A stretch of 64,000 nucleotides of DNA from an uncultured Acidobacteriota bacterium (GTDB taxonomy: Bacteria > Acidobacteriota > Thermoanaerobaculia > UBA5066), in contig CAVZPE010000019.1 in assembly GCA_963776915.1 (NCBI GenBank), positions 7,994-71,993 on the forward strand, written 5' to 3'. The notes beneath the pieces were generated by a model. The model saw only the letters and a program-made list of their open reading frames with translations. It was not told where the DNA came from and ran no database searches. The position numbers and the translations under genes are program-made. Positions 20,579-41,483 of this stretch are shown here, piece after piece (within the stretch, counting starts at the first letter, position 1; the number at the start of each line of letters is the position of its first letter).

Positions 20579-20593
20579 GTCGAGAGGGAGAGA

Positions 20594-20711
20594 GAAGAGG
20601 GGATTTTCTTAGAGGGTGAAGAGGGAAACAGGCGCGCCCAGGCGACCCTCGCGCGAGGTGGCGGTCCGGCCTGAACTTCCTCCTAAACCATTCTAAGAAA
20701 ATTCTTTCTTC
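20594..20711. repeat. About 118-bp element with terminal inverted repeats (copy E1)
   Basis: ATTTTCTTAGA (20603-20613) and TCTAAGAAAAT (20692-20702) are a perfect inverted repeat; GAAGA/TCTTC outer ends; similar to 40428-40550. Confidence 0.65.
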
Positions 20712-20774
20712 CGATCTGCGTTTGGTTCGCTCATATTGGGGAATAGCTCCGGGCGGCCCTACGTTTTGTCCGTC

Positions 20775-23267
20775 ATGACGGATAGCTTCACCCTCCCGGT
20801 TCTCCCTCTCCGCAACGCCGTTCTCTTCCCCGGCGTGTCGACGCCGATCTCCGCGGGCCGCGCGGGGACGATCCGCGCGATCGAGGCGGCGCTGCGCCAG
20901 GCCGAGCCGCTCGTCTTCGCGCTCGCCCAGCGTGCGGACATCGAACGGGTGACCCCCGACGGCCTCTACACGATCGGCACGATCGCGAAGGTGAGCTCGG
21001 TCCAGCGCGGCCTCGGCGGCATGCGCCTGCTCCTCGAGGGCCAGCACCGCGGCATCGCGATGCGCGTGACGGAGAAGAAGGGCGGGATGCTGGAGGCCGT
21101 GGTCGTGAGCGCGGCCGAGATGGCGCCGCCCGACCCGAAGGATCCGGTCTTTCTCGCGCTCCACAAGGAAGCGCGCGAGCGCGCCTCGGAGCTCGGCCAG
21201 AAGCTGGGCCTGCCCGAGGAGGCCGTCGAGCAGTTCCTCGACCAGGCCGACGACCCGGGCCGCCTCGCGGACCTCGTCGCGGGCTACATCGACATCCCGG
21301 CGGCCGACCGCCAGCAGCTTCTCGAGACCCTTTCCGTCGAGGACCGCATCCGCCGCGTCCTCGTCCACGTGCAGCGCCAGATCGGCGTCCTCTCCGCGCA
21401 GGAGGACATCCAGTCCAAGGTCAAGGAGCAGATCGGCGACCGCCAGCGCGAGATGCTCCTGCGCGAGCAGCTCCGGGCGATCCAGAAGGAGCTCGGGGAG
21501 GGCGAGGGAAAGGACGCCGCCGACCTCGAGGAGCTCAAGAAGAAGCTCGCGGCGCACCCGCTGACCGAGGAGGTGCGCAAGGAAGTCGACCGCGAGCTCG
21601 CGCGGCTCGAGCGCATCGGCCGCGAGTCCATGGAGTCCCAGGTCATCCGGACGTTCCTCGAGAACGTCGCGGAGCTGCCCTGGGGCGTGCGCAGCGAGGA
21701 CAAGCTCGACGTCAAGGAGGCGGCCAACATCCTCGACGAGGACCACTACGCCCTCGCCGACGTGAAGGACCGGATCCTCGAGTTCCTCGCCGTGCGCGAG
21801 ATGCGCGCGAAGGCGGAGAAGTCCGAGAAGGCCGAGCCCGCCGCCGGCACGCCCGACGCCTCCGAGGGCACCCCCGGCGGCGCCCCGGTCCTGCCGCGGA
21901 AGGAGGCCTCGACCGGCAAGGGCCGGATCCTCCTCTTCGTCGGCCCTCCCGGCGTCGGCAAGACGTCGATCGCGAAGTCCATCGCCCGCGCGATGGGCCG
22001 CAAGTACGTCCGCATCTCCCTCGGCGGCGCGCGCGACGAGGCGGACATCCGCGGCCACCGCCGCACGTACGTGGGCGCGATGCCCGGGCGCATCGTGCAG
22101 GGGCTGAAGCAGGCCGGCACGAAGAACCCGGTCTTCCTCCTCGACGAGATCGACAAGCTCGGGGTCTCGTTCCAGGGCGACCCCGCGAGCGCCCTCCTCG
22201 AGGTGCTCGACCCCGCCCAGAACGACTCCTTCACGGACCACTACCTCGGCGTCCCGTTCGATCTCTCCGAGGTCCTCTTCATCGCGACGGCGAACTTCCT
22301 CCAGAACATCCCCGGGCCGCTCCTCGACCGGCTCGAGGTCGTGGAGTTCTCGGGCTACACGGAGAGGGAGAAGCTCGCGATCGCCCGGCAGTACCTCGTC
22401 CCCCGCCAGCTCGTCGAGAACGGCCTCGCCGGGGACCAGCTCGCGCTGACCGACGCGGCGATCGCCGAGGTCGTCACGAGCTACACGCGCGAGGCGGGCG
22501 TCCGCCAGCTCGAGCGCGAGATCGGCAGGCTCGCGCGCAAGGTCGCGCGGAAGATCGCGGCCGGCGACGTGACGGCCGTGACCGTGGACGCCGCGGACGT
22601 CTTTCCGCTCCTCGGCAAGAAGCGCGTCCACCCGGAGAAGAAGATCGTCACGGACCAGGTCGGCCTCGCCACGGGCATGTACTACACGCCCGCGGGCGGC
22701 GACATCATGTTCATCGAGGCGATGCTCATGAAGGGCAAGGGCGAGGTCGTCCTCACGGGTCAGCTCGGCGACGTCATGAAGGAGTCGGCGCGCGCCGCCT
22801 GGACGTACGCCCGCTCGCACGCGGCCGAGCTCGGCATCCCCGACGAGGCCTTCGAGCGCGACCTCCACATCCACGTCCCGGCGGGGGCGATCCCGAAGGA
22901 CGGGCCGTCGGCGGGGATCGCGATGGCGACCGCGATCGTGTCGGCCCTTTCGAGGGTGCCGGCCCGCCACGACATCGCGATGACGGGTGAGGTCACGCTT
23001 TCGGGCCGCGTCCTGCCGATCGGCGGCCTCAAGGAGAAGATCCTCGGCGCCGTGCGGGCCGGGATCCGGACGATCGTCCTGCCGAAGGACAACGAGCCGG
23101 ACCTCGCGGACCTGCCGAAGGAGGTCCGCGACGCCCTCGAGGTCCACCCCGTCGACGCCCTCGGCGAGGCGCTCGCCGTCACGCTCCGCGGCGCGAGCTT
23201 CCGGGGCGGCCACTTCGTCCTGAGGGACGAGGTGCCCGCGCCCGCGCTCGTGACGCAGGCGCACTGA
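20775..23267 (+). CDS. lon: ATP-dependent Lon protease
   Basis: LPVLPLRN N-domain, [24 protein letters not shown] (Ser) and IGGLKEK (Lys). Confidence 0.96.
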
Positions 23268-23291
23268 CCCCGGGCGAAGGGAGCCGCCGCG

Positions 23292-23576
23292 TCAGGCGTG
23301 CGCGGCGAAGAAGGCGCGGTGCCGGCGGACGACCCGGCCGATCGTCGCCGGATCGCCGGGCCCGAGGGGCAGGACGTAGAGGGCGCGGTAGAGCGCCTTC
23401 TTCACGCGCGTCGGGACCGGGAGCGCCGACAGCACCCGCCACGTGTCCAGGCTCGCCGAGCGGATCGGCATGAGCCGCCCGACCGGGCGGATGCCGCGGG
23501 CGAGGACGATCGGCGTGCCGAGCGGTCCGCGGAGGAATTCCTTCCAGGCGAAGCGGGAGAAGCGGGCGGTCTTCAT
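23292..23576 (-). CDS. Small basic hypothetical protein
   Basis: ATG overlaps the MFS TGA; TATCCT 7 nt upstream. Confidence 0.5.
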
Positions 23577-24745
23577 GCCGCCGAGGATACCGCGGTTTCC
23601 GGGGGGAATGCGCGCCGGTCCAGCAGGAGGAACGCCGGCACCGAGAGGAGCGCGAGGGCCGCGGCGAGGGCGTAGGCCGCCGGGAAGCCGGAACGTCCGA
23701 TGACCGCGCCGAGCGCGATCGACCCGGTGCCGATGCCCACGTCGAACGCCGCGAGGATCGCCCCGAACGCGGCGCCCCGGCGCTCGTGCGGCACGTGCCG
23801 CGTCACGTGGGCGGCGAAGACCGGATAGACGTTCCCGAACCCGGCGCCGAAGAGGAGCGCGGAGAGCGCGAGGAGGGGCCGGGTCGTCGCGGCCGCGAGG
23901 ACGGCGAAGGACACCGCCGTCAGCCCGAGGAGCGGAACGAGGACGCGGCGCGGCCCGGCCCGGTCCGCGTAGCGGCCGAGGACCGGGCGCAGGACGAGCA
24001 CCGTGAGCGAGAAGACCGTGAAGAAGAGGCCCCGCGGCGCCAGGCCGTTCCTCTCGGTCCACATCGCGACGAAGCTCGTGACCCCGCCGTACCCGAAGCT
24101 GCAGAGGAAGAGCGCGAAGGAAGGAGCGAGGACGCGCCACTCGACGAGATCGCGCGAGAAGAAGGGGCCGCCCCCCGTCGGCCTCGGGGGGTCCGGCTCG
24201 AGGTTCCACGCGATCGCGGCCATCGCGAGGTTCAGGACGCCGACGGACGCGCAGAGGGCCTTCCAGCCCAGCGCGTACACGGCCAGGCCGAGCGCCGGCG
24301 CGAACGCGGTCGCGAGGACCGTCGCCATTCCCCAGTAGCCGATCCCCTCGGCCCGCCGTTCCGCGGGAATGAGTCCCGTGACGTAGGCCGCCGACGCCGA
24401 CAGCAGCCCCGACCAGAAGAGGCCGTGGAAGAACACGAGAGAGACGAGGACCTCCCACCGCGGGGCGAAGGCGTAGGCGGCCGAGAAACCGGCGATGACG
24501 AGGCTCGCCACGAGGAGGACGCGGCGGCGGCCCAGGCGGTCGGCGAGAGCGCCCGTCAGGGGCGCCGAGAGCGCCGAGGCGTACGTCAGGAGGCCGAGGA
24601 AGAGGCCGGCCGTCGTCGTCGTGCCGCCCAGCTCGAGGATGCGGAAGGGCGCCGTCGGGAGGAGCTGGAAGAGCGAGAGGAAGACCGTGAACGTGAACCC
24701 GCACATCACGAGGAATCGGCGCGTGAAGAGCGGCTGCGCGGTCAC
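23573..24745 (-). CDS. MFS transporter
   Basis: About 12 hydrophobic segments; GALADRLGRRRV motif A. Confidence 0.9.
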   Translation of the reverse strand: MTAQPLFTRRFLVMCGFTFTVFLSLFQLLPTAPFRILELGGTTTTAGLFLGLLTYASALSAPLTGALADRLGRRRVLLVASLVIAGFSAAYAFAPRWEVLVSLVFFHGLFWSGLLSASAAYVTGLIPAERRAEGIGYWGMATVLATAFAPALGLAVYALGWKALCASVGVLNLAMAAIAWNLEPDPPRPTGGGPFFSRDLVEWRVLAPSFALFLCSFGYGGVTSFVAMWTERNGLAPRGLFFTVFSLTVLVLRPVLGRYADRAGPRRVLVPLLGLTAVSFAVLAAATTRPLLALSALLFGAGFGNVYPVFAAHVTRHVPHERRGAAFGAILAAFDVGIGTGSIALGAVIGRSGFPAAYALAAALALLSVPAFLLLDRRAFPPETAVSSAA

Positions 24746-24774
24746 GGCGGGAGTCTAGGGGGAGAGCCCGGCCC

Positions 24775-24802
24775 AAAAAAAGGGCCGCCCATCGGGGCGG
24801 CC
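24775..24802 (-). terminator. Intrinsic terminator downstream of rng
   Basis: GGCCGCCC-CGAT-GGGCGGCC stem followed by a T7 run on the minus strand. Confidence 0.85.
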
Positions 24803-24835
24803 GGCAGGAGGTTGGAAGTGCGCCACCCTGCTATC

Positions 24836-24850
24836 GCACGCTCCGTGCCA
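24836..24850 (-). promoter_or_regulatory. sigma54-type -24/-12 site
   Basis: TGGCACGGAGCGTGC versus consensus TGGCACG-N4-TTGC. Confidence 0.5.
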
Positions 24851-24895
24851 GCCGCGGCGCGCCGAATCGGCGCGGCGGGGGCCCCGGGGGACGCC

Positions 24896-26476
<1,581 letters not shown>

Positions 26477-26501
26477 CGGGGGAGTGTACGCGGAGGCCCG
26501 C

Positions 26502-27603
26502 CTAGACGTTCACGTACCGCCGGTACGCGACGGACAGCATGAGCCCGACCATGCACCACGTCGCGATGAGCGACGAGCCGCCGTACGAGAGGAACGGGAA
26601 GCGTGATCCCCGTCGTCGGCAGGACGCCGACGTTCATCGCGACGTTCACGAGGAACTGCGCCCCGATGTTCACGACGAGCAGGAGGACGAGCATCGACCC
26701 GCCGCGGTCGCGGGCGTCCCGTGCGATCGCGAGCGCCCGGGCGACCAGGAAGCCGTAGATCCCGAGGAGGGCCGCGACGCCGGCGAAGCCCCACTCCTCG
26801 GCGAGCGCCGCGAAGATGAAGTCCGTGTGGCGCACGGGAAGGAACCCGAGCCGGCTCTGCGTCCCCTGCTTCCAGCCCTTCCCGAGGATCCCGCCCGAGC
26901 CGATCGCGATCCGCGCCTGCCGGACCTGGTAGCCCGCGCCGCGCGCCGCGAGGTTGGGATCGAGGAAGGTCCGGATGCGGTCTTTCTGGTAGTCCTTCAG
27001 GAAGAACCACGAGCCGCCGATCGCGAGCGTGCCGGCGACGATCAGCGTCGCCCACCAGCGCGCCTTCAGGCCGCCGAAGAACAGGGCGGCGGCGAGGAAC
27101 GGCAGGTACGTGAGGGCGACGCCGAGGTCCGGCTGCGCGAGGACGAGGAGGACGGGGACGCCGACGGCGGCCGCGAGGGCGGCGAGCGTGCGGGTCCTGA
27201 GGATCGGCCGGTCGTCGTTCTCGAGGATCCACGCGAGGAGGAGCGCGATCGAGATCCGGGCGAACTCCGACGGCTGGAGCTGGAACCCGCCCCCGATCCT
27301 GATCCACGACTTCGCGCCCGCGATCCGCGTCCCGAAAACGGGCAGATAGAGAAGGACGAGGAGCGTGAGACCGTACAGGCCGGGCGAATACTGCAGGAGG
27401 ATCCGGTAGTCGATCGCGAGGAAGATCCCGGCCGCGATGAGGCCGATGACGGCGAAGAACACCTGCTTGCCCGCGAGGTCGGAGCGCGGCGAGCCCGCGG
27501 TCGTGGACACGACCATGACGATTCCGATGACGGTCAGGAGGGCCGCGAGGAGGAGAAGCCGCAGGTCGATCCGGCGGGGGAGGACCTCCGCGAGCCGCGA
27601 CAC
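26502..27603 (-). CDS. rodA: Rod shape-determining protein RodA, indel near 26600
   Basis: GAKSWI, QPSEF, QPDLG, GYQVRQ, HTDFIF; LPFLSYGGSS in the shifted frame. Confidence 0.92.
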
Positions 27604-29488
27604 TCAGTCCGCCGGGCGCTCGCGGGGCGCGGCCGCCTGCGCGACGACGGGCGCCGGACCCGCGCGCATCTTCGTGACCCAGTACTGCGCCATCTTCGCC
27701 GCGAGCGGCGCCGCGGCCGTGTTGCCGTGCTCGCCGTGCTCCGCGAAGACGGCGACCACGATCAGGGGGTCGTCCTTCGGCGCGAAGCCGACGAACCAGC
27801 CGTGGTCGCGGAGCTGCTCGGGGAGGAGGTGACCCTTCTTCGCCTCCTTCTGCGCGACGACCTGGACCGAGCCCGTCTTGCCGCACATGTCGAGGCCGGG
27901 GATCCGCTCGCGGTACGCCGTCCCGCCGGGCTGGTTCATGACGCGCCAGAGCCCGTCGAGGACGATGTCGCGCGGAAGCCCCGCCCACGGCACGGACTTC
28001 CTTGACGGCCGGCCGGTAGACGAAGCGCTCGCTCGTCTGGACGTTCTCGGCGATGTGAAAGAGGTGGGGCGTCGGGAGCGCGCCGTCCGCGTTCGCGATT
28101 CCGCACATGGCGCGCGCGAGCTGGAGCGCGGAGACGAGGACGGGCCCCTGGCCGATCGCGACGGAGATCGTCTCGCCCGCGTACCACGGGTGCTTGCGCA
28201 CGGCGAGGCTCCATTCCGTGGACGGAACGATCCCGGGCTTCTCGTGCGCGAGGTCGATCCCGCTCGTGCGCCCGAACCCGAAGAGGCGCGCGGCCTCGGC
28301 GATCGCGTCGATGCCGAGGCGCTTTCCCATCGTGTAGAAGTACGAGTCGCACGAGACCTGGAGCGCCGTCGCGAGGTCGACGCTCCCGTGCTTGCCGTGG
28401 CAGCGGAACGGGCGGCCGTAGAACGTGAGCCCGCCCGGACAGAAGACGCGCTCCTTCGGGTCGATTCCGTGCTTGAGGATCGCGTAGGCCATGAACGGCT
28501 TCCACGTCGAGCCGGGCGAGTAGACGTTCTGGAGGACCCGGTTGTTGAGCGGGTGATTCGGGTCCGTGAGGATCCCCTCCCACTCGGAGCGGGTGACGCG
28601 GCGCGTGAAGAGGTTCGGGTCGTAGGCGGGCGCCGAGACGAGCGCGAGGACCTCGCCCGTCTTCGGGTCGAGCGCGACGGCCGAACCGACCTTGCCGGCG
28701 AAGTAGTCCTCCGCGATGCGCTGGAGCCCGGCGTCGATCGTGAGCTGGAGCGTGTTGCCGGGCAGCGGGTCCTGATGGCCCGACTCGCCGACCTCGCGGC
28801 CGAACGAGTCGATCACGTACGAGCGCGAGCCCGAGACGCCCGCGAGGAGGTCCTGGTACGAGGCCTCGACGCCCTGCTGTCCGATCGCCTCGCCCGGGCG
28901 CGGCACCGACGCGTCGCCCGGGTGCGCCTTCGCGCGCGCGGCGACCTGCTCGGCCGTCGCCTCCCCGAGCTGGCCGAGGAGATGCGCGGCCACCGTCCCC
29001 TGCGTGTAGACGCGGCGCTCCGTCTTCTGGACGACGAGCTCGGGGTGCTCGAGGGCGCGCGCCTGCATCGCGCCGACCTCCGCGACGGTCAGGTTCTCCT
29101 GGAGGACGACCGGGACGAAGTCGTAGTACGAGCGGTCGCGCTCGACGCGCCGCTTGAGCTCGTCGAACGGCCGGTTGAAGAGCTCGGCGACGAAGCGGAG
29201 AGACCCGTCGAGGTCCTTCGTCTCCCGGCGGTAGAGGAGCAGCGTGAACGAGGGCTCGTTCTCGGCGAGGACGACGCCGTTGCGGTCGAGGATGAACCCG
29301 CGCGGCGCCGTCACGGGCACCTTTCGCATCCGGTTGTTCTCGGCCTGCCGCTCGTAGTCCTCGCCGCGCAGGACCTGGTGGACCCAGTAGACGCCCGCGA
29401 GCAGACCGAGGATCCCCCAGAGGATCCGCATCGCGACGTCGATGCGCGAGAGGACGGGCCGCCGGTCCTCGCGGGCGCTCGCGGGCAT
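27604..29488 (-). CDS. mrdA: Penicillin-binding protein 2, indel near 27985
   Basis: APRGFILDRNG, SPGSTWK (SxxK), SCD (SxN position) and GKTG...DHGWF. Confidence 0.92.
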
Positions 29489-29993
29489 CTACGTGAGCCT
29501 CATCCGGCGCCGCGTCTCGCGGCGCTGGCGCCACGGGACGCGCGAGGCGGCGTGGAGGGCGCCGCCGAGGAGACCCGTCGAGAGCGCCCGCGCGAGAAGG
29601 GTCCACGGCGCGGGCGCGAGGAGCGTGCCGCGCAGGATCCAGAGCAGGAACGTGAGCGTCGCGGCCTCGGCCAGAACGGCCCCCGCGAGGAGCCCGCCGA
29701 CCGCGAGCGGCTTCTCGACGATCGTGCGCGAGCCGATCGTGGCGAGCAGGTAGCCCATCAGGATCTTCGTGAAGGCGTGCAGCCCGAGGAGGTGGCCGGG
29801 CCCCGCCAGGGCGTCCTCGAGGAGGCCCGCCGGGAGCCCGGCGAGCATCGCGGGGACCGACCGCGCCGCCGCGGGCCATGTCCGCCACGACGAGGAGGAA
29901 GAAGTCGGGCGGCGCCGGGACGTGGAGGGCGCCGAGCGCGAGCGTCGCGAGGACCGCGAGCGCGAGGCCCACCGCGATCCGGAGCGCCTTCAC
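29489..29993 (-). CDS. mreD: Rod shape-determining protein MreD, indel near 29860
   Basis: Hydrophobic; GLLEDAL...GLHAF; lies between mreC and mrdA. Confidence 0.8.
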
Positions 29994-30850: not shown

Positions 30851-30856
30851 GTGCGT

Positions 30857-31921
<1,065 letters not shown>

Positions 31922-33349
31922 TCAATTGCTGATGAGTACCGTTTCTCGCTTGACCGTCTCGCCGCCCGCGGTCCGGGCCTTGATCACGATCGTCTGCAGG
32001 CCCTCCCCGCCCACCGTGATGATCTTGCGGAAGCTGCCGTCGGCATTCACGTCCGCCGTCTCGCCGTTCACGGTCACAAGTGCTCCGGGGACCGTCCGTC
32101 CCACGAGGACGACCGAAGAGCCCACGACGTTCGGGCGCTGGGTGATCAGGAGGTCGGGCGGGAGCGTGTCGGCCTGGACGGCGACGAGGTCGCTCCCGAC
32201 CGCCTTGAACCGGCGTTCGGCGGTCCATTCGGAATAGACGGTGGGAGAGCCCTTCTTCACGGTCCGCACGTGCCAGAAGTAGAGGCCGGGGTCGTGGACC
32301 TGGATGAGCGTCTCGGGCTGGACGCGCTCGGACGGGAAGCCGGGCAGGACGGAGTCCTTCACGAAGAGCCGGCTCGCCGCGATCTCGACCTGGTAGGCGC
32401 TCGCGTCCTTGATGGGGGACCAGCGGAGCCGGAGGGGCTCGGTCTTGCGGACGTCGACGAGCAGGTTGTCGTCCGGCGCGAGGAGGTTCGGCACGTCCGG
32501 CAGCGACGTCTTGGGGCCGATCGCGCCGCCGCGCTGGGCCACCGCGCGCTCGCGCGCCCCCAGGGTGACGCTCTGGCCGGCGGCGTTGGACAGGACCGTG
32601 CGGCCCCGGTAGGACGACACGGACGTCGCGCCCGCGTCCTGTTCCATGCCGACCGTGGAGTTCGTGTCGATGTTCGCGGTCGCGACGTCCGTCGACACGC
32701 GCGACCGGCTCTTCTCGCCCGTCGAGACGTCCGTCGTGCCGACGACGAGCTTCGGGTTCGAGCCGCCGGCGGCGGCGTGGACCTCGAAGAGAGTCTCGGG
32801 CCGGATGCGGTACATCGTCCCGTCGTTCCAGAGGACCTCGGCGGTCCCGTTCGGGCCCGTCTTGATGAAGTCGCCCTCGTGGAGCGGCATGGCCTGCCGG
32901 AGCGTCTCCCACGTCGTGCGGCTCGCGCGCTGGATCTGCACGGTGCCCGCGACGTCCGCGACACTCGCCTCGCTCTTGATGACCGCGCCCGCCATGATCT
33001 TCAATGCGGTGGACTTCACGTCGAGCGCCGTCCGCGTCGCGCGCTCGTTCTGGCCGGCCGCGAGATCCCGGCGGGCGTCCGCGAGCTTCTCGTCGGCGGC
33101 CGCGATCTCGCGCTGCAGGAGGGGGGCGTCCTGCTGCTTCTTCGCGCGGGAGAGCGCGTCCTCGGCGTCGGCGACCTCGTGCCGCGCGCGGCGCGAGGAG
33201 TCGTCCCGCTTCACGAAGAGGAAGACGCCGCCCGCGACGAGCCCCGCGACGACGAGAAATCCCACGACGATCCTGACGAGCGTCTGCGTCGAGACGTAGT
33301 ACCACTCGAGTTGCGACTCGAGATCCCGGCCCTTCTTGCTGTCCGTCAT
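31922..33349 (-). CDS. Single-TM FecR-domain protein with coiled coil and C-terminal Ig-like domains
   Basis: TM segment, GDFIKTG...AEVLWNDGT FecR motif, VGRTVPGALVTVNG. Confidence 0.75.
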   Translation of the reverse strand: MTDSKKGRDLESQLEWYYVSTQTLVRIVVGFLVVAGLVAGGVFLFVKRDDSSRRARHEVADAEDALSRAKKQQDAPLLQREIAAADEKLADARRDLAAGQNERATRTALDVKSTALKIMAGAVIKSEASVADVAGTVQIQRASRTTWETLRQAMPLHEGDFIKTGPNGTAEVLWNDGTMYRIRPETLFEVHAAAGGSNPKLVVGTTDVSTGEKSRSRVSTDVATANIDTNSTVGMEQDAGATSVSSYRGRTVLSNAAGQSVTLGARERAVAQRGGAIGPKTSLPDVPNLLAPDDNLLVDVRKTEPLRLRWSPIKDASAYQVEIAASRLFVKDSVLPGFPSERVQPETLIQVHDPGLYFWHVRTVKKGSPTVYSEWTAERRFKAVGSDLVAVQADTLPPDLLITQRPNVVGSSVVLVGRTVPGALVTVNGETADVNADGSFRKIITVGGEGLQTIVIKARTAGGETVKRETVLISN

Positions 33350-33392
33350 GGTGTCGTGCTGATCCGGAAACCCTTCTAGGAACGGATGTTAT

Positions 33393-33408
33393 AGCACGCG
33401 ACGTGCCG
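33393..33408 (-). promoter_or_regulatory. sigma54-type -24/-12 site upstream of the FecR-domain gene
   Basis: CGGCACGTCGCGTGCT about 44 nt upstream of ATG 33349. Confidence 0.55.
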
Positions 33409-33528
33409 TGCGCAGCCCCCTCGTGACGGGAACGGTCAACTTTACCGCGGTCAACCGGTGAGGTATCGTCCCCCGTTCTTCGGGTGGCGGCACCCGCACC
33501 GCGGGCCGCGCCCGGTTCCGGAGAAGAA

Positions 33529-35478
33529 ATGCTCAAAGAGCTGCGCGAGAACTTCAAGCACCTCAAGTGGATCCTGTGGGCCGTCATCGCGATCTTCGTG
33601 CTCTTCGTTTTCGTCGACTGGGGCATGGGCTCCTCGCGCGGCGGGGCGGGTGACACGGCGCTCGCGGCCTCGGCGGGCAGCATCCGCATCACGACGGCCG
33701 AGTTCCAGAAGGAATACGCCTTCGCCGAGGACCGCTACCGGCAGGCCTACGGCAAGAACTTCAGCCCCGAGCTCGCCCGGGCGATGAACCTGCCCGAGCA
33801 GGTCCTGAACGGGATGATCGACCGCCAGCTCCTGAGGCGAGAGGCCGACGCGCTCGGCATCCGCGTCACGGACGAGGAGCTCACGCAGCACCTCCTCGGC
33901 ATCAAGGACCCGCAGTCGGGCCGGCCGCTCTTCGTGAAGGACGGCGTCTTCGTCGGGGACGCGACGTACAAGCGCATCCTCGCCGCGAACCGCCTCTCGC
34001 CCGAGACCTTCGAGGCCGAGACGCGCGACTCGCTCGTCCTCGAGAAGCTCAACCGCTTCTACACGCAGTCCATGGTCGTCGGCGACGACGAGGTCAAGGC
34101 CGAGTACGAGAACCGCAACGTGAAGGCCAGGATCGCCTGGGCGCTCGCGCCCCCGTCGGTGGTGGCGCCGCCCGTCGCCGTCACGGACACCGAGGCCGAG
34201 GCGTGGTTCAAGACGAACCCGACGCCTTACATGCAGCCCGAGAAGCGCAAGGCGAAGTACCTCCTCGTCGAGACGGCCAAGATCCGCCCCACGATCCAGG
34301 TCTCGGACGCCGACGTCCAGGCGGACTACGCCGCGAACAGCGAGGCCTACCGCAAGGGCGAGGAAGTCCACGTGCGCCACATCCTCTACAAGGTGGAAGG
34401 CGGGAACGAGGCCGCGCAGAAGGCGAGGGCCGAGGCCGCCGTGAGGAAGCTGAAGGCCGGCGCGGACTTCGCGGCGCTCGCGAAGGCCGAGTCCGACGAT
34501 CCCGGTTCAAAGGGCAATGGCGGAGATCTCGGATCCTTCCCGAGGGGCCGCATGGTCAAGGAATTCGAGCAGGCCGCGTTCGGCGCGAAGGAGAAGGAGA
34601 TCGTCGGACCGATCCGGACGAGCTTCGGGTGGCACGTGCTCCAGGTGCTCGACAAGACGGGCGAGCGCGTGCAGCCCTTCTTCGAGGTCGCGCCCGGGAT
34701 CCGCCAGCGCCTCCAGGAGGACCGCGCCCGCGAGGAGGCCAAGCGCCTCGCCGCCGCTCTGTCCGAGAAGGTCGCGAAGCTCGGGAAGGCCTCGGACGAC
34801 GACCTGCGCAAGCTCGCCTCCGCGGGCGTCACGTTCAACGAGACGGACTTCCTCGCACGGACCGACGCCCCCGCGGGCATCGGCTTCAACCCGCAGTTCA
34901 CGGAGAAGCTCTTCTCCCTCAAGGAGGGCGAAACGTCGCCGACTCCCGTGTCGACCGCGCGCGGCGAGGCGATCGTCAAGTGCGTCGAGATCAAGAAGCC
35001 CGGCCTGCCGACGTTCGCGGAGGTCAAGGCCCGCGTCGTCGCGGACATCCAGAAGAAGAAGCAGGACGAGGCGACGCTCGCGAGCGTCAAGCAGGCCCTC
35101 GAGGCCGCCGGTTCCCTCGAGGCGCTCGCCAAGAAGCTCAACCTCAAGATCGAGACGCCCGACGCGTTCCCGAAGGCCGGGCCGATCCCGGGCCTCGGCG
35201 CGCCGCAGGCCGTTCTCGACGCCGTGTTCGCCGCGAAGCCCGGCGAGACGAAGGGCCCCGTGCCGGTCGAGGGGCGCGGCGTCGTCGTCTTCCGGGTCGA
35301 GAGCGTCACGCCGTTCGACGCGGCGGCCTTCGACCGGGAGAAGGACGCCCTGCGGGAGCAGCTGCGCGGCCAGAAGGCCTCGCGGGTGCTCCAGGCGCTC
35401 ATTCAGCGGAAGAGGGCCGACCTCAAGGTCGAGTTCAACAAGGACCTCCTCTCGCGGATGGGCGGGGCTCGCACCTAG
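33529..35478 (+). CDS. ppiD: PpiD-like periplasmic folding chaperone (SurA-N plus parvulin)
   Basis: N-terminal TM, VRHIL, SDDPGS..GGDLG..RGRMVKEFE and TSFGWH. Confidence 0.88.
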   Translation: MLKELRENFKHLKWILWAVIAIFVLFVFVDWGMGSSRGGAGDTALAASAGSIRITTAEFQKEYAFAEDRYRQAYGKNFSPELARAMNLPEQVLNGMIDRQLLRREADALGIRVTDEELTQHLLGIKDPQSGRPLFVKDGVFVGDATYKRILAANRLSPETFEAETRDSLVLEKLNRFYTQSMVVGDDEVKAEYENRNVKARIAWALAPPSVVAPPVAVTDTEAEAWFKTNPTPYMQPEKRKAKYLLVETAKIRPTIQVSDADVQADYAANSEAYRKGEEVHVRHILYKVEGGNEAAQKARAEAAVRKLKAGADFAALAKAESDDPGSKGNGGDLGSFPRGRMVKEFEQAAFGAKEKEIVGPIRTSFGWHVLQVLDKTGERVQPFFEVAPGIRQRLQEDRAREEAKRLAAALSEKVAKLGKASDDDLRKLASAGVTFNETDFLARTDAPAGIGFNPQFTEKLFSLKEGETSPTPVSTARGEAIVKCVEIKKPGLPTFAEVKARVVADIQKKKQDEATLASVKQALEAAGSLEALAKKLNLKIETPDAFPKAGPIPGLGAPQAVLDAVFAAKPGETKGPVPVEGRGVVVFRVESVTPFDAAAFDREKDALREQLRGQKASRVLQALIQRKRADLKVEFNKDLLSRMGGART

Positions 35479-35502
35479 CTTCGGAGCACGTAACATAGCC
35501 GC

Positions 35503-36096
35503 GTGATCGCGCGGCTCACCGGGACGCTCCTCGAGGTGAGGACGAACGGCGTCGTCCTCGACGTCGCCGGCGTCGGCTACGAGCTCGCGATCCCGCTCGG
35601 GACGTTCTCGGCGCTGCCCCCGGCGGGCGAGAAGGCCTCCCTCCACGTCCACACGCACGTCCGCGAGGACGCGCTCCAGCTCTTCGGCTTCGCGACGCGG
35701 GAGGAGAAGGTCGTCTTCGAGCGGCTCCTCTCCGTCTCCGGGATCGGGCCGAAGGTCGCGCTCACGGTCCTCTCGGGCCTCCCGCTCCCGGAGCTCGTCG
35801 GCGCGATCGTCTCGCAGAACGCGCGGCTCCTCTCGACGATCCCGGGGGTCGGCCGGAAGCTCGCCGAGCGTCTCGGCCTCGAGCTCAAGGAGAAGCTCGC
35901 GAGCGTCGGCCTCGGGGCGGCGCCGGGCGCCCCGGCCGCGAAGGCGTCCGCCGTGGACGACGCGATCGGCGCGCTCGAGAACCTCGGCTACAAGGTCGCG
36001 CAGGCCGAGCAGGCCGTCGAGAGCGCCGTCCGGGCCGTCGGGGCGTCGGACCTCAACAAGATCCTCGCCGCCGCCCTGAAGTCGTTGGCCCGATAA
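35503..36096 (+). CDS. ruvA: Holliday junction protein RuvA
   Basis: MIARLTG, GVGYE, HVRED..LFGF, GIGPK and IPGVGRK. Confidence 0.95.
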   Translation: MIARLTGTLLEVRTNGVVLDVAGVGYELAIPLGTFSALPPAGEKASLHVHTHVREDALQLFGFATREEKVVFERLLSVSGIGPKVALTVLSGLPLPELVGAIVSQNARLLSTIPGVGRKLAERLGLELKEKLASVGLGAAPGAPAAKASAVDDAIGALENLGYKVAQAEQAVESAVRAVGASDLNKILAAALKSLAR

Positions 36097-36105
36097 TCGA
36101 CGCCG

Positions 36106-37125
36106 ATGGACGAACGGATTCTCTCGGGCGTGCTCCAGACGGAGGAGGCGGATCCCGAGATCACGCTCAGGCCGCGCGCGCTCCCGGAGTTCATCGGGCA
36201 GTCGAAGCTCAAGGAGACCCTCGGCGTTTTCCTCCAGGCGGCGCGCCAGCGCCAGGAGCCGCTCGACCACGTCCTCCTCTCGGGCCCGCCGGGGCTCGGG
36301 AAGACGACGCTCGCGCACATCATCGCGCGGGAGATGCAGGCGCAGATCCGCGTGACGTCGGGGCCGGTCCTCGAGAAGGCGGGCGACCTCGCGGCGCTCC
36401 TGACGAACCTCGCGCCGGGCGACGTCCTCTTCATCGACGAGATCCACCGGATGCCGCCCGCGGTGGAGGAAATTCTCTACCCGGCGATGGAGGACGGAAA
36501 GCTCGACCTCGTGATCGGGACGGGGCCGGGCGCGCGCACCGTGGAGCTGAAGCTCCCGCCCTTCACGCTCGTCGGCGCGACGACGCGCGCCGGCCTCCTC
36601 TCGCAGCCGTTCACGGCCCGCTTCGGGATCACGCACCGCCTCGACTACTACGACGCCGGGGCGCTCGCCACGATCGTGACGCGCTCGTCCGAGATCCTCG
36701 GCTGTCCGGTCGACGCCGAGGCCGCCCGGGAGATCGCGAAGAGGAGCCGCGGGACGCCGCGCATCGCGAACCGCCTCCTCAGGCGCGTGCGCGACTACGT
36801 CGAGGTCGCGGGGGAGACGCGCGTCTCGTCGCGGGCGGCCGAGACGGCCCTCGACAAGCTGGAAGTGGACCACCACGGGCTGGACGAGGTCGACCGCCGC
36901 ATCCTCTCGACGATGATCGAGCGCTTCGGCGGCGGGCCGGTCGGCCTCTCCGCCCTCGCGCACTCGCTCGGCGAGGACAAGGGCACGCTCGAGGACCTCT
37001 ACGAGCCCTTCCTCCTGCAGTCGGGATTCCTGCAGCGCACGCCGAAGGGCCGCGTCGCCTCCGCGCTCGCCTACCGGCACCTCGGGCTGAAGCCGGCCTC
37101 GGGTCCGGGAACGCTGTTTGGCTGA
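36106..37125 (+). CDS. ruvB: Holliday junction helicase RuvB
   Basis: [31 protein letters not shown] and YEPFL. Confidence 0.97.
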
Positions 37126-38029
37126 CGCGCGCCCGCGCCGCGGCCTGCTCGTCTACAACCCGAAGGCGGGAGGCGCCGCGCGGCGGATCGACGTGCCCGG
37201 CGTCGTGGCGCGCGCGGCGGCGCGCGGCCTCGTCCTCGACCCGATCCCGACGGAGCGCCCGCGGCACGCGACGGAGCTGGTCGCCGCCCGGATCGGGTCC
37301 GAGATCGACCTCGTCGCCGTCGCGGGCGGCGACGGGACGGTCGGCGAGGCGGCCGAGGCGCTCCTCGGGCGGACGTTGCCGATCGCGATCCTTCCCGCGG
37401 GGACGGCGAACGTCGTCGCCCGCGAGTACGGCGTCGCGGACCCCGATGCGGCCGAAGCGGCGCTGTTCTCGGGCAGGACGCGGGAGCTCACGGTCTTCCA
37501 CGCCGCGGGCCGCGCCTGCCTGATCGGCGCGGGCGTCGGGTTCGACGCGCGCGTGATGACGCACACCGTGCCGCTCCTCAAGAGGCTCTTCGGCCGGACG
37601 GGAATCGGCTGGACCGCCACGCTCGAGTGGCTGAAGTACGAGTTCCCGGCGATCGAGGTCGAGGGCCTCGACGCGGAGGGACGACCCTTCCGGCGCGAGG
37701 CCACGTTCGTCCTGTCGGCGAACACGTCGCGCTACGGCGGCGACCCGATCCTCTCGCCCTACGCGGATCCCGCGGACGACCTTCTGGACCTCGTCCTGTT
37801 CACCTCGCGCTCGCGGAAGACGCTCATGCTCTTCTACCACCACCTCTCGGGCGGGAAGGCCGCGCACCTCCGGGACGAGGGCGTGTCGCGAATGGCGGTG
37901 CGCTCGTTCACGGCCCGCTCGAGGGCCGGCTACGAGCTCGAGGTGCAGGTGGACGGCGACGGCGCGGGCACGACGCCCGTGGACGTCGGCCCCGCCGCCG
38001 GCCGCGTCGCGATCCTCGTGCCGGGCTGA
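37118..38029 (+). CDS. Diacylglycerol/lipid kinase family protein
   Basis: NPKAG, GGDGT, PAGTANV, GVGFDA and QVDGD. Confidence 0.9.
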
Positions 38030-38121
38030 AAGCCGGTCACGATATCGGCGCGTGTCCAGGCGCCTCGGCGGGCGCCGCGGGGTCGTGGTCCTCGTCGTCT
38101 CCGGGCGGAAGAGCTGAGCGG

Positions 38122-38524
38122 TCAGACCACCTCGATGCGGGCGCGGTGGCCGCGTGCGGCGCCGAGCGCCGCGTCGCGCGTGAGAAGCGGGGAGTCGAGA
38201 GCCTCGGCGAGCGCGACATAGGCGGCGTCGTAGGCGGTCAGGCCGCCCGCGCAGCTGCCAGACGCGACAGGCGAGCGCGTCGTGAGGGTAGCGGGTGAGC
38301 GGAAGGTCGCGCGAGCTCCTCGACGGCAGCTTCGGACGCGCGCGGCGTCAAGGAGCCCGGTTGCGCTCGAGCCGACGGAGGACGTGAAGAACTTCGAGGT
38401 CGAGAACGTGAGGGGCATGCAGCGACGCCTGGGGGCCGTGAAGAGGCGGCGGCAGCAGCCGGGCGTCGCCTCCGGAGTGCCGAGCAGGACGTCGACGACG
38501 AGCGAACGCGTCGACGACGATCAG
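38122..38524 (-). pseudogene. vapC: VapC/PIN toxin with multiple indels (pseudogene or sequencing error)
   Basis: IVVD, HAPHVLDLEV and LTAYDAAYVALAEAL..PLLTRD found in different frames. Confidence 0.7.
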
Positions 38525-38753
38525 AGCGCGGCCCCTCGGAGCCGGCGGATCTCGTCGGCGCTCGCCCTGGAAACCTCACGGACGAGCAGCTCTCGAGGCG
38601 CCGGCGGATCTCGTCGGGCGTCGGGCGGTCGGCGGCCCGGCGGGCTTCCGCGAGAAGGTAATCCGACAGGGACATGCCGGCCAGGGCGGCGCGGGCCTTC
38701 AGCTTCCGGTGGAGGTCGTCGGGGACGTTACGGATCTGGATCATCGTCGACAT
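38521..38753 (-). CDS. RHH (FitA/VapB-like) antitoxin, indel near the C-terminus
   Basis: MIQIRNVPDDLHRKLKARAA..GMSLSDYL; stop overlaps the toxin start. Confidence 0.8.
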
Positions 38754-38759
38754 GCGAGA

Positions 38760-38789
38760 AGACTACTCAGCATGCGCAGGACATGTAAA
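38760..38789 (-). promoter_or_regulatory. sigma70-type leaderless promoter of the TA operon with RCATGY palindromes
   Basis: TTTACA-N18-TAGTCT-N6-ATG; GCATGC at 38770 and ACATGT at 38781. Confidence 0.55.
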
Positions 38790-38805
38790 AGGCACCTAGA
38801 CCGGA

Positions 38806-40405
38806 TCAGCCCTTCCGGTAGTGGCAGCCCCTCGAGACGGGGTTCTTGAAGGCGGCCGTCGCGATCGCGTGGGCCGCGCGCACGCCGTGGAAGAGGTCGA
38901 CGATCTCCTTGCTGATCTTCGTGACCTGGTAGAAGCGCAGGATCCGCTTCTCGAGGTCGCGCAGGTCCGCGACGGCGCGCGCGAGACGCGCCGTGGTCCT
39001 CACGATCCCGACGTAGTTCCACATCGTGTTGCGGATCGTCGCCCAGTCCTGCTGCAGGAGCGCCGGGTCCTCGTTGGCCGCGTCGCCGGGCGACATCCAG
39101 TCCGGGATCGCGCGGAACACCGTCGCGGGCTGATGTCCTTCCTTCCGGAGGCGCGCCGCGATGGAGCTCGCCGCCGCGTCGCCCCAGACGAGCCCCTCGA
39201 GGAGGGACGTGGAGGCGAGCCGGTTCGCGCCGTGGACGCCCGTGCAGCTCGCCTCGCCGACGGCGTACAGCCGGCGGATCGTCGTCCTCCCGTCGAGGTC
39301 CACGAGGACGCCGCCGCAGTGGTAGTGGGCGGCGGGGACGACGGGGATCGGCTCTTTCGCGATGTCGATCCCGAGCTCCGCGCACCGCGCGGCGATCGTC
39401 GGGAAGCGCTCGCGGATCCCGATTCCCTCGTGCGACTTGAAGTGCCGCGCGAGGTCGAGGTAGACGCAGGGCTCGCCGCGCTCGGTCATCTCGGTGACGA
39501 TCGCGCGCGTCACGATGTCGCGCGGGGCGAGGTCCTTGCGCCGGTCGTAGCGCGGCATGAACGCTTCGCCCGCGCGGTTGACGAGGACGGCGCCCTCGCC
39601 GCGGAGCGACTCGGAGATCAGGAAGCCCTCGGCGTCCTCGTGGTAGAGCGTCGTCGGATGGAACTGGACGTACTCGAGGTTCAGCGTCGCGGCGCCCGCG
39701 CGCTCGGCCATCGCGAGGCCGTCCCCGATCGCGTGCCGCGTGTTCGTCGTGTGCAGGAAGAGTCGCCCGACGCCGCCGGTCGCGAGGACGGTGAAGTCCG
39801 CGAGGACCGTGTGGACCCGGTCGTCCCCGTCGAGGACGTACGCCCCGAGGCACGGGTCCTGGAGGGCGTAGCGCTGCGCGACGTCGGTCGAGTGGTGGCG
39901 GGCCGTGATGAGGTCGATCGCGGTCGCCTCCGTCCAGACCGTGACGTTCTTCTCGGTCTTCAGCCGGTCGAGCATGGCCGTCTCGATGGCCTTGCCGGTC
40001 GCGTCCGCCGAGTGGACGATGCGGGCGACCGAGTGGGCGCCCTCGCGCGTGAAGTCGAGGTCGCCGCCCCGGGTCCGCGAGAACGGCACGCCGGCGTCGC
40101 GCAGGAGGACGCTCTTCACGACCTCGGGTCCGCGCCGGGCGAGAAGCTCGACCGCCTCGCGGCGGCAGAGCCCCGCGCCGGCCCGCAGGATGTCCCGCAC
40201 GAGGGAGGCCTGCGAGTCGCCCTTCCCGAAGTAGATGATCCCGCCCTGCGCCCAGGCCGTGTTGCACTCCGCCGCGTTCGCGGCCTTCGTCAGGACGAGG
40301 ACTTTCACGCCGCGCCGCGCGAGCCGGTACGCCGTCGAGAGGCCCGGCGATCCCCGAGCCGAGGACGAGGACGGGGACGTGCAGGCGGGAGGGGAAGGAG
40401 GTCAT
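38806..40405 (-). CDS. nadB: L-aspartate oxidase, indel near 40345
   Basis: GSGIAG, WAQGGI, EGAHS, QFHPT, SESLRGEG, VPAAHY, HGANRLASTSLLE and GCHYR. Confidence 0.93.
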
Positions 40406-40427
40406 GGGGAACCGAGGGGAGAGAGGG

Positions 40428-40550
40428 GAGAAGAGATTTCGGATTTCTTAGAAGGCGCGTGCGGCGCCGTGTCGGGCCGCCTCGTCGATGCCGCGCCGGT
40501 CATGGCGCGCTGTTCCCTCTCTTCACCTTCGAAGAAATCTTTCTCTTCTC
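40428..40550. repeat. About 123-bp element with terminal inverted repeats (copy E2), plus an extra arm copy at 40563-40600
   Basis: GAGAAGAGA..GATTTCTTAGAAGG (40428-40455) is inverted relative to CCTTCGAAGAAATC..TCTCTTCTC (40526-40550); 42-bp tandem period at 40521/40563. Confidence 0.7.
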
Positions 40551-41483
40551 TTTCTTCTTCCCCTTCACCTTCAAGGAAATCTTCTTTTCTTTCCTCGGGG
40601 CGCTCGCGTCGACGTCGAGGGCGATGTCGATCGCGCGGATCGAGTGCGTGATCGCGCCGGCCGAGACGAAGTCGACGCCGGCCTCGGCGGCCGCGCGCGC
40701 CGTCTCGGGCGTCATGCGGCCGGACGCCTCGGTCGTGACGGTCGCGCCCGTCGCCTCGTTGTAGAGGTGCACGTCCTGGACGGCCTCGGCCATCGCGGCC
40801 GCCGTCATGTTGTCCAGCAGGACGCGCTCGGCGCCCGCGTCGAGCGCCTGGTGCACCTCGTCCCGCGTACGGGCCTCGGCCTCGAGGAGCAGCGGCGCGA
40901 GCTTCCGGTTCAGCGCGCGGAAGTCCTTCGCGCGACGCGTCGCCTCCCACACGCTGCCGGCGCCGTCGGCGTGGTTGTCCTTCACGAGAAAGCCCCACGC
41001 GAGGCCGTAGCGGTGGTTCGTGCCGCCGCCGCAGCGCACCGCGTAGCGCTCGAGGCGGCGCAGCCCCGCGGTCGTCTTGCGGGTGTCGAGGAGGACGGCC
41101 GTCGTCCCCTCGAGGGCGTCGACGTACGCCCTCGTCTTCGTCGCGATGCCGCTCAGCCGCTGGAGGAGGTTGAGGGCGGTGCGCTCGGCCGCGAGGACCG
41201 TGATCGCGGGCCCCTCGATCTCCGCGAGGACCGATCCGGGGGAGACGGCCGTCCCGTCCTCGACGAGGACGCGGACCCGCGCGGGCGGCGAGAGGAAGGC
41301 GAAGAGGCGGGGCAGGAACGCCGCACCGGCGACGACCGCACGCTCGCGGCAGACGATCCGCGCCGAGAGGCGCGCGGCGGGCCCGAACACGGCCAGAGAC
41401 GTGACGTCCTCGCCGTCCTCGGCGAAGGCGCGGGACAGGAGGTCGTCGAGGTCGTCCGCGAGGTCCCGGGAGAGCTTCTTCAC
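40500..41483 (-). CDS. nadC: Nicotinate-nucleotide pyrophosphorylase with a Lys-rich C-terminal extension
   Basis: AERTALN, DTRKT, NHRYGL, KDNH, LLDNM, EASG and SAGAITHS. Confidence 0.92.
   Translation of the reverse strand: MKKLSRDLADDLDDLLSRAFAEDGEDVTSLAVFGPAARLSARIVCRERAVVAGAAFLPRLFAFLSPPARVRVLVEDGTAVSPGSVLAEIEGPAITVLAAERTALNLLQRLSGIATKTRAYVDALEGTTAVLLDTRKTTAGLRRLERYAVRCGGGTNHRYGLAWGFLVKDNHADGAGSVWEATRRAKDFRALNRKLAPLLLEAEARTRDEVHQALDAGAERVLLDNMTAAAMAEAVQDVHLYNEATGATVTTEASGRMTPETARAAAEAGVDFVSAGAITHSIRAIDIALDVDASAPRKEKKISLKVKGKKKEKRKISSKVKRGNSAP

Follow-up and report, generated by a model that had tools for sequence, protein, structure and literature searches.

A genus-restricted family of paired, AT-rich half-elements at the gene junctions of an uncultured Thermoanaerobaculia bacterium

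The stretch of DNA analyzed here (the window: 64,000 nucleotides, C19:7994-71993) is part of the metagenome-assembled genome (MAG) of an uncultured Thermoanaerobaculia bacterium (G000; 4.49 Mb in 34 contigs, 71% G+C, approximately 82% complete), and contains two inverted-repeat elements, E1 (20582-20713), located between an aminotransferase gene and lon, and E2 (40413-40559), located between nadC and nadB. Both elements are members of a genus-restricted family of several hundred short half-elements, or arms, which combines three distinctive features: only the arms are conserved; the arms are independent half-sites with a strict polarity and a preferred spacing; and the known mobilizers are absent. 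The reading adopted here, with about even confidence, is that of a selfish or near-neutral interspersed repeat, comparable to the repetitive extragenic palindromes (REP) and bacterial interspersed mosaic elements (BIME), or to the Rickettsia palindromic elements (RPE), which spreads by a copying mechanism that we infer. The conserved word was not found in the literature searched, in which there was also no relevant paper on repeats in the Thermoanaerobaculia, and the family is apparently undescribed.

On its purine-skewed strand, the half-element is approximately 70 nt long, and its profile consensus opens with a GA-rich tract, which varies in length, or with GATTTCGGA-type units, continues with a near-invariant core, (G)ATTTCTTAGAAGG, and closes with GTGAAGAGGGG, a degenerate tail. 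The sole palindrome of the consensus, (GA)n-GATTTCTTAGAAGGTGAAGAGGGG, is the 9-nt TTCTTAGAA, and there is no GTAG or CGTC tag. The purine skew is limited to positions -40 to +29 around the core, outside which the DNA is unskewed, with 76% G+C, while the conserved sequence amounts to approximately 14-24 nt per arm. The skew span gives full elements of approximately 130-190 bp, which replaces the length of 120 bp given in an earlier note on this DNA. The 18-mer TTCTTAGAAGGTGAAGAG was counted over the 4.49-Mb genome, and occurs in 58 exact copies, 157 copies with up to one mismatch, and 239 with up to two, with approximately 4e-6 expected. The half-element profile (nhmmer, built from 157 copies) returned 314 matches at E < 0.01 and 600 at E <= 1, for a genome total of approximately 300-600 half-elements, at a density of one per 5-7 kb.

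These counts are slightly inflated by the presence of a second, related strain that was co-binned in the MAG, which also provides a built-in strain comparison. This strain is visible as long syntenic duplicate stretches with 86-99% identity, such as C7:15083-36392 and C19:1035-22177, C33 and C4:559-596 kb, or C31 and C19:85.6-91 kb. The earlier note had proposed a repetitive extragenic family that it did not recognize, which is borne out, in that there are hundreds of largely extragenic copies in the genome. The family had no match to Rfam at the gathering threshold, where only two tRNAs were recovered from the window. The copies are thus not confined to those that the note had described, nor are they carried by all the orthologous loci, at which the arms are present, absent, or remodeled.

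Neighboring arms are arranged with a marked polarity, in 232 convergent pairs, with the tracts facing outward, as against 19 divergent and 65 tandem pairs. In the convergent pairs, the distance between the starts of the two cores is mostly 75-110 nt, with a mode of 86-87 nt. The centers of 217 pairs are unrelated to one another, with matches being found only among kinase paralogs or between the contigs duplicated in the two strains, and the half-elements come and go separately, so that the discrete element of 120 bp, similar to a miniature inverted-repeat transposable element (MITE) or to ERIC, which had been suggested by the earlier note, is not supported. The internal GGCGG.CCG motif that E1 and E2 appeared to share also carries no weight, given that the centers have approximately 76% G+C.

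Partner arms resemble each other no more than do arms paired at random (core, z = 2.6; inner part, z = -1.5; tract, z = 0.3), and at three tail positions they are less similar than arms taken from other pairs, while the canonical tail is found on both arms in only 7 of the 217 pairs. The arms are thus drawn independently from a common consensus, which argues against the replication of a hairpin unit in the REPIN style, and against the copying of an arm from its partner. The template-switch (quasipalindrome) version of this copying was rejected on the same lack of any special similarity. An invertible segment (inverton) was set aside, as the centers of orthologous loci never differed in orientation in the comparisons made, and the segments themselves are very short. 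A structured or conserved center was also rejected, given that the folding z of the centers is that of random genomic DNA and no families of centers were found.

The copies are dispersed over all the large contigs among housekeeping genes, where they are located mostly between genes on the same strand, and also at the 3' ends of genes, but are depleted between divergent genes (8% vs. 24%). The distribution of the family was assessed in a further 24 genomes from the GTDB genus of G000, together with 16 genomes from two other families of the order, and in a class survey of 301 genomes from 107 genera, in which the 12-mer TTTCTTAGAAGG was counted. All 24 of the genus genomes contain 25-112 copies of the 18-mer with up to one mismatch, and none of the 16 others has any. 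The 12-mer, in turn, is present in 45-210 copies in 17 of the 17 genus genomes, and in no more than four copies in 283 other genomes of the class. A scan for an exact 21-mer, with one genome per species, found more than 109 places, all of which are in Thermoanaerobaculia or Acidobacteriota MAGs. In the sister genus of the same family, one genome (G174) has 16 copies of the 12-mer and another (G082) has none. The copies of G174 are genuine arms, 87-99 nt apart in facing pairs, and their GA tracts are poorly developed. The contrast between these two genomes points to either lateral arrival or loss.

At the lon locus, E1 lies between the stop codon of a class I/II aminotransferase gene (TGA 20576-20578) and lon (ATG 20775). 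Its left half-element (20582-20629, plus strand; nhmmer E = 6e-6) starts 4 nt past the aminotransferase stop, and consists of a GA tract (20582-20602), the core TTTCTTAGAGGGTG (20605-20618), and a GAAGAGGGAAAC tail. The GC-rich center (20630-20675) has homology only with the centers of relatives (the C7 strain and G022) at this locus, and is followed by the right half-element (20676-20713, minus strand), with the core TTTCTTAGAATGGT (20700 down to 20687), an atypical TTTAGGAGG tail, and a pyrimidine tract (20701-20713). The lon leader and its ATG (GATCTGCG...CTCATATTGGGGAATAGC...; 20714-20777, plus strand) are outside the repeat. This leader has blocks conserved across the genus (GATCTGCG, GACTCAcATcGGGGAATAG, and CGTTATCGGGGCATG; loci L110-L133), has no Shine-Dalgarno-like sequence, and is a candidate promoter or operator.

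The lon-proximal (right) arm is recognizable in approximately 20 of the 24 species of the genus, accompanied by CTAAAC upstream and by the conserved GATCTGCG and GACTCACATCGGGGAATAG blocks downstream, which indicates that it predates the genus. The 12-nt core of this arm has 75% identity between the two main clades, compared with 60% at the fourfold sites of lon. The distal (left) arm is found in only five of the 24 species, with differing centers, and the combination of this arm with a center is limited to G000, the co-binned C7 strain, G022, G024, G020, and G011; the first three share a homologous center, and G011 has a different one. The distal arm of G024 and that of G022 both overlap the 3' end of the aminotransferase gene, and supply its last residues and the TGA (RKFLRR* and RRFLGR*, respectively). 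Based on a two-protein tree, several independent deletions are needed at this locus. In the C7 strain, G019, G021, and G004, the gene upstream of the element is not the aminotransferase, and the breakpoint is at the outer edge of the element. The demonstrable effect of E1 is structural, in that the element keeps the conserved leader of lon apart from the aminotransferase stop.

The second element, E2, lies between nadC (ORF [open reading frame] end 40500) and nadB (ATG 40405-40403), both on the minus strand. The nadB-proximal half-element (40413-40463, plus strand) has a purine tract with an GATTTCGGA unit, the core TTTCTTAGAAGGCG (40444-40457), and a CGTGCGG tail, and its outer tract abuts the nadB ATG. 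The center (40464-40512) contains the nadC stop (TGA 40502-40500, minus strand), and the nadC-proximal half-element (40513-40559, minus strand; nhmmer E = 4e-7) has the core TTTCTTCGAAGGTG (40537 down to 40524), followed by GAAGAGAGGGAACAG. A third arm (40560-40598, minus strand), with the core TTTCCTTGAAGGTG (40579 down to 40566), duplicates the nadC-proximal half-element in tandem. The earlier note had recognized the two inverted arms of both E1 and E2, the third arm, which is confirmed by the arm profile, and an arm that the two elements have in common in opposite orientations, found here to be 45 nt long (E1 on the plus strand, and E2 on the minus strand), GAAGAG..GATTT(T)CTT(A/C)GA(G/A)GGTGAAGAG..GGAA(A)CAG(G)CGCGCC.

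In the six outgroup loci shown (L170-L175), and in five species of the genus (G004, G012, G014, G015, and G023), in which the repeat is absent, nadC and nadB overlap as ATGA or GTGA, with no spacer, an arrangement of translational coupling. Other species translate the nadB-proximal arm in frame into a tail of NadC (...ARKPLTRLLRNPK...), and the overlap is retained. The state of the locus varies among species, from the right arm only to the left arm only, or both. The nadB-proximal arm, which is the older of the two, occurs in each of the three clades, one of which has seen it lost or eroded on at least four occasions, while the nadC-proximal arm is an addition in the clade of G000. This arm has a tandem duplicate in G000 and G019 only, with a GA tract of either 26 or 75 nt between the copies. 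Overall, then, arms have been gained, lost, duplicated, and remodeled between species at both the lon and the nadC-nadB loci.

In G000, the NadC protein ends in ASAPRKEKKISLKVKGKKKEKRKISSKVKRGNSAP*, 34-36 residues past the end of the QRPTase_C domain, in a lysine-rich C-terminal extension of 34-36 amino acids (40500-40610, minus strand) derived from two arms. The nadC-proximal arm of E2 is translated as ...KRKISSKVKRGN, with the TAG of the arm being replaced by TCG, and the third arm as ...KEKKISLKVKG, with TTG in place of TAG. The nadC stop is now in the center, approximately 95 nt ahead of the nadB ATG, and the ancestral coupling of the two genes is thus broken. As in E1, the demonstrable effect of E2 is structural, that is, the uncoupling of nadC from nadB, and the gain of the lysine-rich tail by NadC. 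The NadC tails of two species of different clades (G009 and G011; loci L153 and L165) share the segment ..RRA(I/L)G(A/G)P...PKST(V/I)SSKVKR.., a similarity at the sequence level that suggests recombination between lineages at the nadC-nadB junction.

Three other arms in the window had been missed by the earlier note. Two of these, at 47447-47468 (plus strand, GGAAGAGGGGGATTTCTTCGAA) and 47822-47840 (minus strand, CTTCTTAGAAGGGTAAG), are convergent, 375 nt apart, while the third is a single arm at 50728-50761 (minus strand, GGAGAAGATTTCTTAGAAGGTAAAGAGG), whose own TAG (50748-50746) ends the ORF at 50746-52374. The "degenerate piece" that the note had placed at 10985-11055 was detected neither by the arm profile nor by a search that allowed three mismatches.

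The comparison of the two co-binned strains indicates rapid turnover, given that approximately 8-9 of the 31 arm-bearing loci found in both strains differ structurally, some of them by indels of 66-457 nt in which either a center, one arm, and a tract, or a whole pair, has been gained or lost. The remaining apparent differences are of one or two substitutions near the detection threshold. The outer boundary of the repeat is a GA/TC tract of variable length, and the boundaries of the strain indels have no consistent duplicated target; none of these indels is a clean insertion with a target duplication, and no unambiguous recent insertion with a clean empty site was found. At three of the structurally different loci, a hairpin element of another kind stands in place of the arm pair. 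A second repeat family, (GA)GATTTTCTTATATGCGGCGGCTGC-tgat-GCAGCCGCCGATAG..GAAATC..CCGGTGTCAAGGG, with approximately 18 copies in G000 and none in the window, was also observed, at loci that include C16:1068, C5:2118, C7:137673/137844, C11:64209/64382, and C18:290420. This family, which may be a "TGTCAAGG-tipped hairpin", occupies the site in one strain where the other has an AT-rich arm pair in C19:88116/C31, C27:79478/C5, and C22:6748/C16.

The arms are depleted in genes, but are not excluded from them. Based on rough ORF calls that cover 75% of the genome, 114 of the 541 strict arms (approximately 21%) are located inside ORFs, where the base that creates a stop codon (A7, giving TAG or TAA) is rarer (56% vs. 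70%, p = 0.007). In at least 21 Ser/Thr kinase paralogs, both arms are in frame, 103 nt apart, with the left arm encoding ...LPEDFLEGEER..., and the right arm ...YSFEEI..., followed by a tract of 5-15 Ser/Pro codons. In the nearest outgroup kinases, from genomes without the repeat, the corresponding sequence is PEEFFEDGDR...Y(A/S)FEEI(A/S)xRH, written in ordinary GC-rich codons, which represents a weak "proto-site". The kinases of the genus, by contrast, spell the positions of the left arm GAA GAT TTC TTA GAA GGT GAA GAG AGG, in a genome (G000) in which GAA accounts for 10% of Glu codons, TTA for 0.04% of Leu, GGT for 3.6% of Gly, and AGG for 8.5% of Arg. The left arm has not changed the length of the gene in comparison with the outgroup orthologs, while the right arm has gained a pyrimidine tract. 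In G000, the kinases are clustered at C4:317-630 kb, with others at C13:59357, C15:337550, C16:108362/113379, and C20:268871, and at least three paralogs (C4:358973, C4:366401, and C4:376436) have a second facing pair approximately 670 nt downstream.

The known mobilizers of small repeats were sought in the genomes with and without the family. The RAYT/Y1 domain (PF01797) is absent from G000 (approximately 82% complete) and from 21 of the 24 genus genomes, and is present in 11 of the 16 outgroup genomes that lack the repeat. The reverse transcriptase domain RVT_1 was found in one of 14 genus genomes, and TnpB in none of the 14, nor in G000 at this level of completeness; neither these two nor RAYT/Y1 co-distributes with the repeat. 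DDE_Tnp_1 was found in five of the 14, but not in G000, with the same limit. Genes of the rve type are present in most genomes, whether or not they bear the repeat, and the four of G000 are not flanked by arms; one insertion sequence (IS) with clear ends has unrelated terminal repeats. No IS with matching ends, which the earlier note had proposed to look for, was found in the genome. A phage vehicle was also rejected, since the single IMG/VR match is a phage with 42% G+C, and represents a chance coding match, and competence does not discriminate between the genomes, as ComEC (PF03772) is found in the genus and the outgroups alike.

The selfish-repeat reading fits best with the abundance of the family, its lineage restriction, its sites at gene junctions and 3' ends, its tolerance in frame, its association with indel hot spots, and its dispensability at each locus. 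Under this reading, the repeats colonize gene junctions and the 3' ends of genes, and their translation is tolerated as long as the frame is open, as in the NadC tail and the N-lobe of the kinases, and the arms can themselves supply stop codons. Turnover is fast, through indels, tandem duplication, and the slippage of the tracts. The abundance of the repeat, its polarity and spacing, the independence of its arms, its restriction to the genus, the history of the two loci, and the read-through in coding sequence are all demonstrated here. The copies would be produced by a trans-acting, sequence-specific activity, which we infer to be encoded outside the element, and to be other than RAYT, TnpB, a reverse transcriptase, or a matching IS. 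This activity would install half-elements from a consensus source, or convert sites to it, rather than copying whole elements, with a preference for sites beside an existing half-element or sites that are already similar to the word. In this scenario, the visible effects at the two loci of the window are the uncoupling of nadC from nadB in translation, and the lysine-rich NadC tail.

A number of observations weigh against the selfish-repeat reading. No copying machinery was found among the mobilizer families tested, and every structural difference observed is equally explicable as a deletion. Whole-element copying predicts shared centers in recent copies, and none share them. The AT-rich core survives in a genome of 71% G+C, in some cases in arms as old as the genus, and the modest excess of conservation in the lon arm, at this single locus, hints at constraint. 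The strict polarity and the preferred spacing of the pairs would be expected of a factor that reads two half-sites. In its codon usage and unchanged length, the left arm of the kinases looks like the product of conversion, or of selection on a DNA word, rather than of insertion; the kinase arms may represent one event followed by the expansion of the paralogs, and that event would still be conversion-like.

The main alternative, which is possible, if somewhat doubtful, is a paired signal read by the host throughout its genome, in which a genus-specific factor would recognize two facing half-sites approximately 60 bp apart. Such a factor might be a dimer or tetramer that binds DNA, a receptor for DNA uptake, or an enzyme involved in processing or topology, and the word would accumulate by mutation together with drive or selection, including the recoding of genes, as in the DNA uptake sequences (DUS) and the cyanobacterial HIP1. 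The recoding of the kinases into very rare codons, with no change of length on the left side, the survival of an AT-rich word in the face of GC pressure, and the ruler-like spacing of the pairs, are the main reasons for retaining this explanation, which would also account for the excess of convergent over divergent pairs, and for their repetition in the same layout in the sister-genus genome, the independent derivation of the arms from one consensus, the centers of unrelated local DNA, the conservation of the lon arm somewhat above that of the fourfold sites, and the sharp genus-level boundary. The presence of the ComEC competence channel is also in its favor. However, the many independent losses at nadC-nadB and lon are uncompensated, approximately a quarter of the shared loci are structurally different between strains, and the density of the word is about an order of magnitude below that of the DUS and the uptake signal sequences (USS), which are some ten-fold denser than one per 5-7 kb. 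The variable GA tracts and the tandem duplications of the arms would not be expected if the arms were a recognition site alone, ComEC is found just as much in the genomes without the word, the kinase arms may reduce to one event with paralog expansion, and no candidate reader was found. A more specific proposal, which is rather unlikely, is that a trans-acting "writer/reader" of one Thermoanaerobaculia genus installs the AT-rich word of 14-24 nt as two facing half-sites, with an inner distance of approximately 60 nt, by converting look-alike sites, in genes as well, with recourse there to rare codons, instead of transferring a defined element, in a process distinct from transposition, RAYT-type mobilization, and the drive of uptake sequences.

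The remaining explanations fare worse. It is improbable that the family functions primarily at the RNA level, with the hairpin of a transcribed pair acting as a terminator or insulator, an mRNA stabilizer, an RNase III site, or a translational uncoupler, local roles that have been reported for some REP, ERIC, and Correia copies. In its favor, E1 and E2 fold into long hairpins far below dinucleotide shuffles (z = -3.75 and -3.04, respectively), and the whole elements have a mean z of -3.7 (88 elements, mononucleotide shuffles), while the centers (-0.28) resemble random genomic DNA (-0.40), so that the elements fold well because of their arms only. The predominance of sites between same-strand genes, the depletion between divergent ones, the exact placement of E1 between the stop of the aminotransferase and the leader of lon, and the position of E2, between nadC and nadB, also favor this role. 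Even so, the hairpin does not require the conservation of the arm sequence, single arms and arms within ORFs are common, and the partner arms have no compensatory similarity. In 65 pairs between same-strand genes, the purine differences compatible with G:U pairing on the sense transcript number 311, in comparison with 386 incompatible (A:C) ones (p = 0.005), a disfavoring of G:U that runs in the wrong direction for selection on a sense-strand RNA hairpin, which was rejected on this basis and on the lack of covariation between partners. No intrinsic terminator (a GC-rich stem with a T tract) was found at E1 or E2, where the stems end in the AU-rich core, followed by a C/U tract, and no sigma-70-like promoter was found at either. 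A directional promoter, terminator, or Rho-utilization site was also rejected, given that no consensus promoter or terminator was found and the unpaired arms have no bias in their orientation relative to the flanking genes (75 vs. 69).

A classical MITE, that is, a non-autonomous deletion derivative of an IS, whose transposase would recognize the arms in trans as terminal inverted repeats, is very improbable, and has been largely refuted. The inverted, outward-defined pairs of fairly uniform length, in hundreds of copies, their variable presence between species and strains, and the rve-type transposase genes of most of the genus genomes are all consistent with this origin. They are opposed by the lack of homology between the interiors of the copies, the internal position of the most conserved part, with variable GA tracts at the outer ends, and the half-elements that occur and change singly, as well as by the absence of arms around the four rve genes, the unrelated ends of the one well-defined IS, the lack of DDE_Tnp_1, TnpB, and Y1 in G000, and the rve genes of genomes without the word. 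That the arms are locus-specific operators, serving a regulator of lon and nadB, is scarcely credible, despite the palindromic TTCTTAGAA (9 bp) of the core, the location of both elements directly upstream of a gene, and the retention of the lon-proximal arm in most species. This explanation is refuted by the number and the locations of the copies, which are found in their hundreds at unrelated genes, in ORFs, and at 3' ends, and by the repeated loss of the nadB-proximal arm at a locus where the ancestral state had no intergenic region.

Among the known systems, the REP, BIME, and REPIN families of the Proteobacteria, which are mobilized by the Y1 transposase RAYT, have in common with the present family hundreds of short, mostly extragenic copies between same-strand or convergent genes, typically organized in inverted doublets of approximately 100 nt, and the two partners of a BIME also tend to differ as sequence variants. 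Here, however, the single arm is not a hairpin-forming palindrome and has no GTAG/CGTC tag, the partners show no covariation, approximately 21% of the arms are inside ORFs, and RAYT (PF01797) is absent from G000. The RPE are likewise genus-restricted and palindromic, have no transposase, and are found both between genes and in frame within them, where they add residues, as in the NadC tail and the kinase loop. While the copies of the RPE share a full-length consensus, the conservation here is limited to approximately 14-24 nt per arm, with unrelated interiors and independent half-elements, and one kinase arm arose with no change of length. The DUS of the Neisseriaceae, the USS of the Pasteurellaceae, and HIP1 are lineage-specific, over-represented words, neutral in orientation, which often form inverted pairs after genes, and are also found within genes, against codon preference. 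The present word is longer (14-24 nt plus the tract), approximately 10-fold less dense, and subject to a high indel turnover, and has a strict pair polarity, with a gap of approximately 60 nt and variable tracts.

The MITEs Correia (Neisseria), ERIC/IRU (Enterobacteria), and Nezha (cyanobacteria) are similar in size and copy number, and likewise have inverted ends, transcripts that form hairpins, and an occasional role in supplying the ends of genes, but the present family has no conserved interior, no definable terminal bases or target-site duplication, and no parent IS. The attC sites of the integrons also combine conserved inverted end motifs with a center that is variable in both sequence and length, over 60-140 nt. 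The present copies are, however, dispersed among housekeeping genes, with no arrays beside an integrase (intI itself was not searched for), and have centers without internal dyad symmetry. The mycobacterial MIRU are found in operons at overlapping stop/start junctions, where read-through turns them into short extensions of the ORF, like that at nadC-nadB, but are direct tandem repeats with a conserved unit, rather than inverted half-sites.

Two other features of the sequence should also be mentioned. Conserved genes with internal frame breaks are found at approximately 20330 (aminotransferase) and 40310 (nadB) of the window, and in several of the C4 kinase genes. At these breaks, the Pfam matches end, and the N- or C-terminal part resumes in another frame, which reflects either indel errors in the assembly or pseudogenes. 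The window also contains families of direct repeats, at 1148-1845, 8411-9981, and 45617-46045, which are unrelated to the half-elements and encode ..DGG.(S/T)W.. motifs, read as BNR/Asp-box-type repeats in large proteins.

If the family is selfish DNA, it would represent a REP- or RPE-like repeat that spreads without any known mobilizer, and whose unit of propagation is the half-site, which would widen the known routes of the spread of small repeats in bacteria. If it is a host signal, it would represent a new system of genome-wide punctuation in a widespread, uncultured lineage of soils and sediments. The sharp boundary at the genus level provides a natural experiment, and the comparison of G174 with G082 could identify the gene responsible. 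In either case, the arms have reshaped genes, by opening coupled junctions such as nadC-nadB, adding charged tails and loops, and providing stop codons, and they mark hot spots of rearrangement and indels, which makes them relevant to the annotation and assembly of these MAGs.

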